DNA of 64,000 bases, taken from NCBI GenBank assembly GCA_964106645.2, contig OZ067047.1. One strand, written 5' to 3'. The position numbers and the translations under genes were made by a program. Positions 10,883 to 12,628 of the stretch are shown one piece after another. The notes below the pieces were generated by a model that had not been told where the DNA came from, ran no database searches, and saw nothing but the letters and a program-made list of their open reading frames with translations. This stretch comes from Podarcis pityusensis (Eukaryota). Numbering within the stretch: position 1 is the first letter of the stretch; every line of letters begins with the position of its first letter.

Positions 10883-12628
10883 ATGGATGCCAAGAAAGGG
10901 GGAGGTTTGCCTTGCCCACCTCTCTTGACCAATGACAATTATTCATCTTGGTCTGTAAAGATGAAGGCCCTGCTGCAGAATCAGAGGCTTTTTGATGTAA
11001 TTGAAAACCCCATCCCTGCAGCACCAACCAGAGGGTGGGAGTCACAGAATGTAAGGGCCAGGACTGCTATAATTCTGTGTGTCTCAGATGATCAGTTGGT
11101 GCATGTTCAGCATTTAGAAAATGCGAAAGAGGTATGGGACACGCTGCGTACAACGCATCAGAGAGATGCTGGTTCTTCAGCGTTGCTGTATTTTGAGAAA
11201 TTGACCAATCTGAGACTTGCGCCTGATGGAGATGTTCAAGCGCACCTGACAGAAATGAAGTTTCTGCGTCAACAGATGGTGGAACGCAATTTCCGTCTTC
11301 AGGAGGAAGTGTTTTGCTTCATGATGATAAACAGCCTTAGCCGCACCTACAAGGTTGTTGCCAGTCAGCTTGGTTCCCTACCGGCCGCGCAGCTGACCGC
11401 GGAAAGAGTTTGTGCTGTGGTCCTGAATGAACACGACAGACTTGCTGCACTGGAAGAAAAAGACAGGGGGAGGGAAGAACAGAGTTCTAATTCCCCCACT
11501 GATGATGCTACTGGGGAGCATGGTGTAGCATTGAGTGCTGTCCGATGCTACAATTGTGGACAGACTGGGCATCTACAGCGAAACTGTAAGAAGCCGCGCC
11601 AGTCAAGAGGAGCAAAGAGCAGCTCTACGAAGCCTCAGGCGTCAGGCAAAAGCCGCACCAAGTGCCAGGTGAAACCTGCAAAGGCTATGATGGCGAAAGG
11701 AACCACGCCAGATGTTGGGAACTCGTTCATAATTGACACGGGCGCCACGGTTCATATGTGCCCGCACAGAGGACTATTTTCGACGTTGAAGAAGCAAAGC
11801 TTCACTGTGAAACAGGCCAACGGTCAGGAGTTGGAAGCGACTGGAATTGGGACTGTGTATCTTGAGAGTCTGAACTTGACTATAAGCAATGTTTACCTGG
11901 TTCCAGAACTGAGATTTAATCTGCTGAGCGTGTCGCAGATTGCAAAGAAAGGACTGAAACTGTCCTATGATGCTAAAAGCTGCAAGATCTACAAAGATGG
12001 AGAACTGTTTCTTACTGCCAAAGAGAAAGATGGACTGTATTTGTTGACTTTTGATCAAAGTGATTACATGAAATGTAATTCTTCTGTTTCTAACGAAATC
12101 TCTCTCGCAGGTGTGACCAGTGTGAGCACCAGGAAGGTGACTAAGACCAAGAAGGTCGACAGAGCATTTCAGCGGGTGTATGCTGATGTGATTGGTCCTC
12201 TAGAACCATCTAGAGGCGGTGCACGATATTACCTTGTGTGTGTGGATTGTTTCACTAATTATTCTTGGGTTTATATGATGGAGAAACCGCAAGAAACTTT
12301 AGAAAAGTTTCAGGAGTTTTGTGACAAGGTTAAAAGTATGCATGATGCTAACATTGATTGTCTTTTCACAGATGAGAAGCAAATTTTTCTGTTACAGAAG
12401 TTTCAGAAGTTCCTGGATGGAAAAGGGATAGACCACAAAGTGGCAGTTTCGCAAGAAGCGTGGAACAGGGGGGTCTGTGTAAAAGTGAACAAAGAATTGC
12501 AAAAGGGGATGAATGCGCAATTGCTGAGTTCACATTTGCCACATGAATATTGGGCCGAATCGGCTAGCGTCCTATCTTCATGTGTGGCTGAGAAAGGTCT
12601 CAACAGAGTTGGGATGTTCTCCTTTTGA
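10883..12628 (+). CDS. Copia Gag (UBN2/Retrotran_gag-like) - CCHC knuckle - aspartic protease - integrase core
   Basis: LTNDNYSSWSVKMKALL gag start; CYNCGQTGHLQRNC (11546-11587); FIIDTGATVHMC (Asp at 11735); VYLVPELRFNLLSV; VYADVIGP...YYLVCVDCFTNYSWVY...LFTD...LPHEYWAE. First ATG at 10883. Confidence 0.92.
   Translation: MDAKKGGGLPCPPLLTNDNYSSWSVKMKALLQNQRLFDVIENPIPAAPTRGWESQNVRARTAIILCVSDDQLVHVQHLENAKEVWDTLRTTHQRDAGSSALLYFEKLTNLRLAPDGDVQAHLTEMKFLRQQMVERNFRLQEEVFCFMMINSLSRTYKVVASQLGSLPAAQLTAERVCAVVLNEHDRLAALEEKDRGREEQSSNSPTDDATGEHGVALSAVRCYNCGQTGHLQRNCKKPRQSRGAKSSSTKPQASGKSRTKCQVKPAKAMMAKGTTPDVGNSFIIDTGATVHMCPHRGLFSTLKKQSFTVKQANGQELEATGIGTVYLESLNLTISNVYLVPELRFNLLSVSQIAKKGLKLSYDAKSCKIYKDGELFLTAKEKDGLYLLTFDQSDYMKCNSSVSNEISLAGVTSVSTRKVTKTKKVDRAFQRVYADVIGPLEPSRGGARYYLVCVDCFTNYSWVYMMEKPQETLEKFQEFCDKVKSMHDANIDCLFTDEKQIFLLQKFQKFLDGKGIDHKVAVSQEAWNRGVCVKVNKELQKGMNAQLLSSHLPHEYWAESASVLSSCVAEKGLNRVGMFSF

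Follow-up and report, generated by a model that had tools for sequence, protein, structure and literature searches.

RESULTS

A young copia insertion from a high-copy repeat family

A Ty1/copia LTR retrotransposon of 4,052 bp occupies positions 9820-13871 of the window, i.e. the whole stretch of 64,000 nucleotides that was analysed, and contains a pseudo-integrase at 12161..12559 (Table 1). The superfamily was recognized from the direct TG...CA LTRs, the TSD, the primer-binding site (PBS) and the polypurine tract (PPT), where the PBS is presumably complementary to the 3′ end of the animal initiator tRNA-Met. The domain order in Pfam was also of the copia type (PF14223, PF22936, rve and SH3_retrovirus), with the integrase placed directly after the protease, the rve match in ORF1 being weak and the SH3_retrovirus match lying in the second frame, and the element grouped with copia proteins in a tree. 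The second frame crosses the PPT and reaches its stop at 13544, which is 147 bases inside the 3′ LTR and about 110 bases upstream of the AATAAA at 13654 in that LTR.

Table 1. Parts of the copia element and its flanking duplication
Feature	Position	Strand	Evidence
Left TSD copy, CAGAT, 5 bp	9815..9819	+	sequence
5′ LTR, 474 bp, TG...CA, AATAAA at 10076	9820..10293	+	LTR comparison
Primer-binding site, one base past the 5′ LTR	10295..10312	+	sequence
ORF1 of this copy: Gag, zinc knuckle, protease and most of the pseudo-integrase core; end out of frame	10883..12628	+	
Copia Gag	10961..11443	+	PF14223, E 1.7e-23
CCHC zinc knuckle, intact	11546..11587	+	PF00098
Aspartic protease, DTG motif intact	11726..12046	+	PF22936, E 1.3e-20
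Short linker, predicted disordered, at the site of the HHCC deletion	12047..12160	+	sequence and model
Pseudo-integrase core, D1 12185, D2 12371, Val 12479 at the Glu position, remodelled helix 4	12161..12559	+	
Frame break of this copy; read-through in other copies of the family	12560..12565	+	
Second open frame: core end, SH3-like domain, acidic tract, basic motif, tail	12564..13544 (open from 12528)	+	
SH3-like domain, in second frame	12636-12797	+	
Acidic tract, in second frame	12852-12930	+	
Basic RRSER...EFA motif, in second frame	13077-13136	+	
RNase H-start-like short motif	13305..13343	+	alignment to autonomous relative P0166
Polypurine tract	13388..13395	+	sequence
3′ LTR, 474 bp	13398..13871	+	LTR comparison
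Right TSD copy, CAGAT	13872..13876	+	

The two 474-bp LTRs start with TG, end with CA and are identical at 473 of 474 positions (one mismatch), half of their divergence being 0.001 per site (95% upper bound, 0.006). The insertion is very young and bears an integrase-type footprint, namely TG...CA ends and a 5-bp TSD; an integrase-independent insertion of this copy was ruled out by these clean ends and the TSD. The closest named proteins, from Podarcis lilfordi, were 97–98% identical, which suggests a wall lizard as the likely host. The element is a member of a large, high-copy repeat family: the element stretch was present in 20 of the 24 listed sequencing runs under four organism labels, none of these runs being recorded as RNA, and thousands of short variant contigs per run matched it. 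A domesticated host integrase gene, i.e. a single fixed locus without LTRs, was rejected in view of the near-identical LTRs, the TSD and the many-variant repeat family found under the four labels.

Directly upstream of the 5′ LTR, a strong palindromic hairpin was found at 9700-9815 (DNA fold −37 kcal/mol, z −7.4) with a weak match to mir-6536, far below threshold; the hairpin probably represents a small inverted-repeat element that received the retrotransposon or lies next to its insertion site. Element-derived sequence also appeared in the host gene models P0004, P0005 and P0011, annotated as vomeronasal type-2 receptor 26-like (Podarcis) and FAM168A isoform X1 (Zootoca), through either mis-annotation or exonisation.

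Val at the catalytic Glu position and lack of the HHCC domain

A first-pass annotation, made from the sequence of the window, had described the integrase as catalytically dead, with Val where the catalytic Glu is expected and without the HHCC zinc domain. Both lesions were borne out. D1 is Asp (GAT) at 12185 and D2 is Asp (GAT) at 12371, followed after 35 intervening residues by Val (GTA) at 12479, which HMMER placed opposite the GVAER Glu of a Ty1 integrase (7z0h_W, E 1.1e-7). In a copia alignment of 97 rows, the catalytic-Glu column contained Glu in 91 rows, Val in three, Ser in one and a gap in two, and the three Val rows (P0003, P0004 and P0011) were all of the dead type. The segment between GLYLL and the core contained no His and a single Cys, the latter seemingly left over from the CxxC pair in the linker at 12047..12160. 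The distance from the protease end to D1 was 51 residues in P0003 and 48 in P0011 against a median of 90; the HHCC pattern was present in 92 of the 96 scorable rows, and the gag_pre-integrs domain, found in active relatives, was absent from the window protein in Pfam. The triad reads D,D,V in the window, P0003 and P0004, and G,N,V in P0011, where the replacement of D1 and D2 by Gly and Asn could be peculiar to the one copy. Judged by its sequence, the integrase appears not to be of the active type, lacking both the D,D(35)E triad and HHCC.

The same annotation had named Glu at D2+28 as an acid that might take over in the active site. This candidate was rejected, as it was present in only 2 of the 97 rows and replaced by Ala in P0011. 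Another Glu, at D2+41, occurred in 3 of the 97 rows, exactly the dead-type ones; it lies five residues along helix 4 in the AF2 model and would, by helix geometry, be off the active-site face.

Frame break of this copy and persistence of the dead state in the family

The integrase had also been claimed to be kept in frame, which held for the family and failed for this copy. ORF1 leaves the integrase frame just past YWAE (near 12560-12565), and the remaining core residues, the SH3 part and the tail are encoded in the other frame; this copy cannot make the whole protein, and the further claim that the SH3-like C-terminus is kept did not hold for it. On the other hand, P0003 and P0004, which are natural P. 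lilfordi copies, read through the break site. In the X1 contigs, 13,508 of 14,600 of the depth differed from the window at this site, and so did 10 of 10 RNA reads over it (7+3) in run X23. The break is therefore either private to this copy or an assembly error.

Variants at a frequency of at least 3% were tabulated from the contig sets X1, X12 and X13 and the raw RNA run X23, giving 26 rows in a table that is complete on 12340-12580, an interval excluding D1, and that takes in records at least 80% alike, with rare variants dropped by the contigs. No change to Glu was found among these variants in the four runs, in agreement with a fixed E-to-V change. The D2 codon was free of variants, and the Val codon varied solely by a synonymous change of its third base. 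The 25 in-frame variants (the 26th, past the break, was dropped) comprised 11 synonymous and 14 non-synonymous changes and no stops, corresponding to pN/pS of 0.30–0.47 (p = 0.004–0.049), where the range reflects the transition bias assumed and the variants were pooled over runs and classified base by base. In X23, 27 reads from about 12% of the run fell on the region, and in almost every case the first mate mapped to the minus strand. In common stranded libraries such an orientation corresponds to sense transcripts. X23, one run under another species label, shows only low-level transcription of related copies.

Predicted fold of the pseudo-integrase

The read-through copy P0003 was modelled by AF2 with the 97 rows, and pLDDT exceeded 90 over the protease, the core and the SH3 domain, with a disordered linker at the HHCC site; this main model leaned on an alignment of mostly active integrases. 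When only the three dead-type rows were given, pLDDT was 33 and the protease failed too, so that this model was uninformative. The P0003 model matched the PFV (foamy-virus) and RSV integrases in Foldseek with a core rmsd of about 3 Å, and an Atlas model of P0003 gave TM values of 0.93–0.95 over residues 156-378 against copia integrase models. The RNase H-like core fold and the SH3-like C-terminal domain are thus predicted to be kept in family copies.

A second dead family and constraint on the dead core

A search of 1.84 billion cluster representatives yielded a second family, P0011 of Zootoca vivipara (869 aa, 43% identical), which also lacks RT and HHCC and has Val at the Glu position. The HHCC deletion is at the same place in P0011 and the Podarcis-type family, and 19 residues common to both are rare (<5%) in the 94 other rows of the alignment. 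In a protease+integrase tree of 27 rows, the dead pair was joined at 100/99 support on a long stem and sat in a 100/99 group with P0012, P0166, P0167 and P0162, its exact sister being supported at only 87/74. The shared Val, the shared HHCC deletion, the 19 rare residues and the tree support suggest that the loss was probably old and single, preceding the split of the families.

Comparison of the two families, made through one Zootoca gene model (P0011), gave identities of 53/109 in the protease, 71/141 in the core, 31/71 in the C-terminal domain and 73/172 in Gag. Maximum-likelihood distances were 1.11, 0.96 and 0.96 substitutions per site for Gag, protease and core, respectively, with overlapping bootstrap ranges (5–95%: 0.91–1.32, 0.70–1.22 and 0.85–1.29), indicating that the dead core diverged no faster than Gag and protease since the split. 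The stem branch was 0.75 for the core, 0.24 for the protease and 0.15 for Gag (bootstrap: 0.52–1.07, 0.09–0.55 and 0–0.32), which points to a burst of core change at the time of the loss, followed by constraint. The ratio of core to protease distance was 1.0 in the dead pair versus 0.2–0.55 in five pairs of active-type integrases, suggesting that core constraint is relaxed but still substantial. Next to a Gag of 42% identity, a neutral region should be much more decayed; in a neutral simulation, 10 of the 2000 runs made at 52% identity left both lineages without a stop, with frameshifts uncounted.

As for individual residues, 63 alignment positions reached at least 70% conservation in the other rows; of these, 40 were changed in one or both dead families and 23 were kept. 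The changed positions include the catalytic Glu, the G-x-E motif that follows D2, the loop with P-x-x-N and a number of conserved basic or polar residues, and the kept ones are mostly structural (Gly/Pro/Trp/aromatic). The most conserved 25-residue window between the dead families (17/25) was the remodelled helix around the lost Glu. Identity between the families was not enriched in hydrophobic columns (30/57 vs 43/96, p = 0.40), and a contrast in hydrophobicity itself (43/57 vs 8/96), which lacks a neutral control, was not counted as evidence. A metagenome scan for the pattern gave 215 matches, none of them confirmed, and a search for longer homologs of the P0003 core returned none, which is no evidence, since it also missed P0011 and P0012 in its length range.

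From the two families and the 25 variants, it is likely that the protein is a pseudo-enzyme under purifying selection, with its catalytic residues lost and its fold kept. The first-pass proposal of a kept fold, lost catalysis and a structural role is supported at the family level, where two families separated by about one substitution per site have the Val and the HHCC loss in common, conservation of the core equals that of Gag and protease, and the models predict an intact fold; it does not extend to the C-terminus of this copy, which lies out of frame.

Missing reverse transcriptase and candidate helper elements

The element is non-autonomous: RT and RNase H, which should follow the integrase, are missing, a larger fact that the first-pass finding does not mention. 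No RVT_2 match was found in the element by Pfam, and a tblastn search in which the P0166 RT-RNase H part served as query gave only one match of 60 columns (E 0.002) near 13197-13343, at the start of RNase H. Comparison of the motif at 13305..13343 with the first strands of the P0166 RNase H gave 0/1000 shuffles for the window and P0004 and 112/1000 for P0011 (not significant), and a tail-to-tail comparison of the dead families gave a score of 94 (0/1000 shuffles). The tail motif was not detected by a general copia RT-RNase H profile; it is likely the only remnant of RT-RNase H, in frame. The basic RRSER...EFA motif at the IN/RT junction was kept in both dead families. As read from these alignments, the lineage appears to have lost RT, most of RNase H, HHCC and the catalytic Glu, and the element in the window is likely a young copy of this non-autonomous Ty1/copia lineage of lacertid lizards.

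The nearest complete autonomous relative was P0166 (ENA record, 1338 aa). P0167 from Podarcis muralis is of the active type, having HHCC and D,D,E, and P0162 from P. lilfordi has HHCC and D1; a complete autonomous element in a named lacertid was not seen among the relatives found. P0012 (845 aa, a cluster of four members) has intact HHCC and DDE without RT. Its final ~20 residues diverge from P0166 where RT would begin; P0012 is therefore probably a frame-broken copy of the autonomous lineage and less probably an RT-less intermediate family. The dead core was only 32–39% identical to the active-type relatives seen, a considerable divergence through which any hetero-dimer surface would need to have been preserved.

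DISCUSSION

Possible roles of the pseudo-integrase

The capture of the RT and integrase of a helper by non-autonomous LTR elements is still poorly explained; shared cis signals are the usual answer, with Gag invoked in some cases. The long-conserved dead integrase described here points to a protein–protein route of capture. Family copies would make a single polyprotein of Gag, protease and pseudo-integrase that packages its own RNA, and the intact protease would release the pseudo-integrase. Given copia biology and the missing RT and active integrase, both enzymes must come in trans, presumably from an autonomous copia of the same lineage, for which the relatives above are candidates. The pseudo-integrase is then predicted to pair with the helper integrase through the core–core dimer surface and to fill the outer, non-catalytic positions of the intasome, where neither an active site nor HHCC would be needed, so that scarce helper enzyme would be drawn to the particles and cDNA of the parasite.

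We tentatively favour such a non-catalytic partnership with a helper integrase as the job of the protein, because it keeps the core fold, the SH3 domain and the basic tail without the active site or zinc domain, matching the needs of an outer subunit. Outer intasome subunits attach by the core–core interface and, in vitro, can do without their N- and C-terminal domains (PMC6784120). It is possible, albeit doubtful, that specialization went further, to a dedicated pseudo-integrase that would serve as outer subunit only and, with its rebuilt helix 4, dock on the helper integrase or on the IN-RT precursor, thereby diverting helper enzymes to parasite particles.

A rather unlikely alternative is that the pseudo-integrase was selected for aiding reverse transcription or transport, by binding helper RT or the RNA/cDNA of the element, or by nuclear carriage via the basic C-terminal RRSER...EFA motif, which may be NLS-like. 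This motif and the short RNase H-like tail persist in both dead families, and the best conserved part is the remodelled non-catalytic helix, as expected for a new binding surface, but many conserved basic and polar residues near the active site have been lost. The non-catalytic roles of Ty3 and Ty1 integrase in cDNA synthesis need close association with RT, whereas Ty1/Ty3 integrase alone in trans did not rescue reverse transcription (PMC5371799).

The integrase region might also be a folded, translatable passenger, whose open frame shields the RNA from nonsense-mediated decay or gives cis-packaging and whose residues are kept in order that the Gag-protease fusion folds; we regard this as unlikely. 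Such a role would fit a frame that extends to 13544, only ~110 bases short of the AATAAA, and kept residues that are largely structural, and the in-frame gag-pol fusion of the mouse IAP 1-delta-1 element aids retrotransposition in cis (PMC6466679). However, a passenger could have been deleted just as RT was, yet about 900 bases of pseudo-integrase were kept over about one substitution per site, and both families have in common derived helix 4 residues of a surface type.

It is improbable that the protein moderates the helper, as a dominant-negative or dosage damper, or has another activity through the shifted acid at D2+41. The restriction of this Glu to the dead rows (3/97) and the persistence of D1 and D2 in the Podarcis-type family would suit such a function; however, Gly and Asn replace D1 and D2 in P0011, neither family retains the active-site loop motifs or HHCC, and D2+41 would be off the active-site face by helix geometry. 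Poisoning of the helper would also cut the mobility of the family itself, which is nevertheless high-copy and freshly inserted. Of the structural roles offered by the first-pass annotation, dominant-negative interference has the lowest likelihood, given that the family relies on a helper and is still inserting.

Ordinary decay, in which the integrase was active through most of its history, died recently and separately in each family and merely inherited its conservation, is very improbable and already largely refuted: this copy is frame-broken, core constraint is relaxed, and non-autonomous families with partly decayed INT/RT/RH remnants are common (15 of 115 families in sugar beet; PMC13570524), but the Val, the deletion and the 19 rare residues that the two families have in common, the long core-specific stem, the synonymous excess with zero stops within the family and the neutral simulation all stand against it.

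Relation to known elements

The element resembles Ty1/copia elements (Pseudoviridae) in its TG...CA LTRs, 5-bp TSD, PBS, PPT and the order Gag-CCHC-protease-integrase, and has lineage-specific motifs in common with P0166, P0012 and P0167. Unlike autonomous members, it has no RT and no HHCC, Val in place of the catalytic Glu and only a possible short remnant of RNase H. The corn snake OCA2 gene carries a copia insertion, showing that autonomous copia is active in squamates, and at 4.05 kb the present element is shorter than that element of 5.8 kb (PMC4657000).

Non-autonomous LTR elements that keep Gag are known, for instance TR-GAG and wheat RLG_Quinta (PMC11302176), and sugar beet has non-autonomous families with GAG/PROT or decayed POL remnants (PMC13570524). 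As in these plant families, Gag (together with protease) is kept here, RT is missing, mobilization would occur in trans and a high copy number is possible; whereas the plant elements are described as being without integrase or having patchy decayed remnants, the whole core and SH3 domain are in frame across the present family and conserved between two distant families. The element therefore works like one of the TR-GAG or Gag-only class and is no strict member of it, since a full integrase core and SH3 domain remain. The mouse IAP 1-delta-1 element is likewise non-autonomous, being a very mobile deletion derivative helped in cis by its gag-pol fusion, but it is a recent deletion form of a betaretrovirus-like ERV, and the accessible part of its description mentions no remodelled, long-conserved pseudo-integrase (PMC6466679).

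A functional parallel is provided by the outer subunits of the PFV intasome, which need the core fold and dimer surface and can do without the active site and N-terminal zinc domain, i.e. what the pseudo-integrase keeps and lacks. In the retroviral intasome, the same protein takes inner and outer positions (PMC6784120), so a dedicated dead paralogue supplied by a parasite is a hypothesis of the present work. No published account of this family, or of a conserved pseudo-integrase in a non-autonomous element, was found in the papers searched, a set without most subscription papers and without Repbase/Dfam, where the family may have an entry.

If the hijacking reading is true, parasite elements would possess a protein-level device in which the catalytic and architectural roles of integrase are naturally separated. 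The protein would then offer a naturally occurring separation-of-function variant for integrase roles other than catalysis (outer intasome subunits, reverse-transcription support and nuclear import) in copia elements, about whose intasome architecture little is known. Moreover, the family is still inserting, and in wall lizards its sequence turns up in gene models of the host.

Other sequences in the window

Rfam gave no match at gathering score in the whole 64-kb window, and the 14 longer ORFs outside the element had no convincing Pfam match. Many dispersed repeats at 80–90% identity, LINE-end-like, SINE-like or MITE-like by appearance, were seen at 19712-20157, 30342-30787, 31549-31957 and other places, and a perfect palindrome with two 91-base arms and zero spacer is located at 58648-58829.
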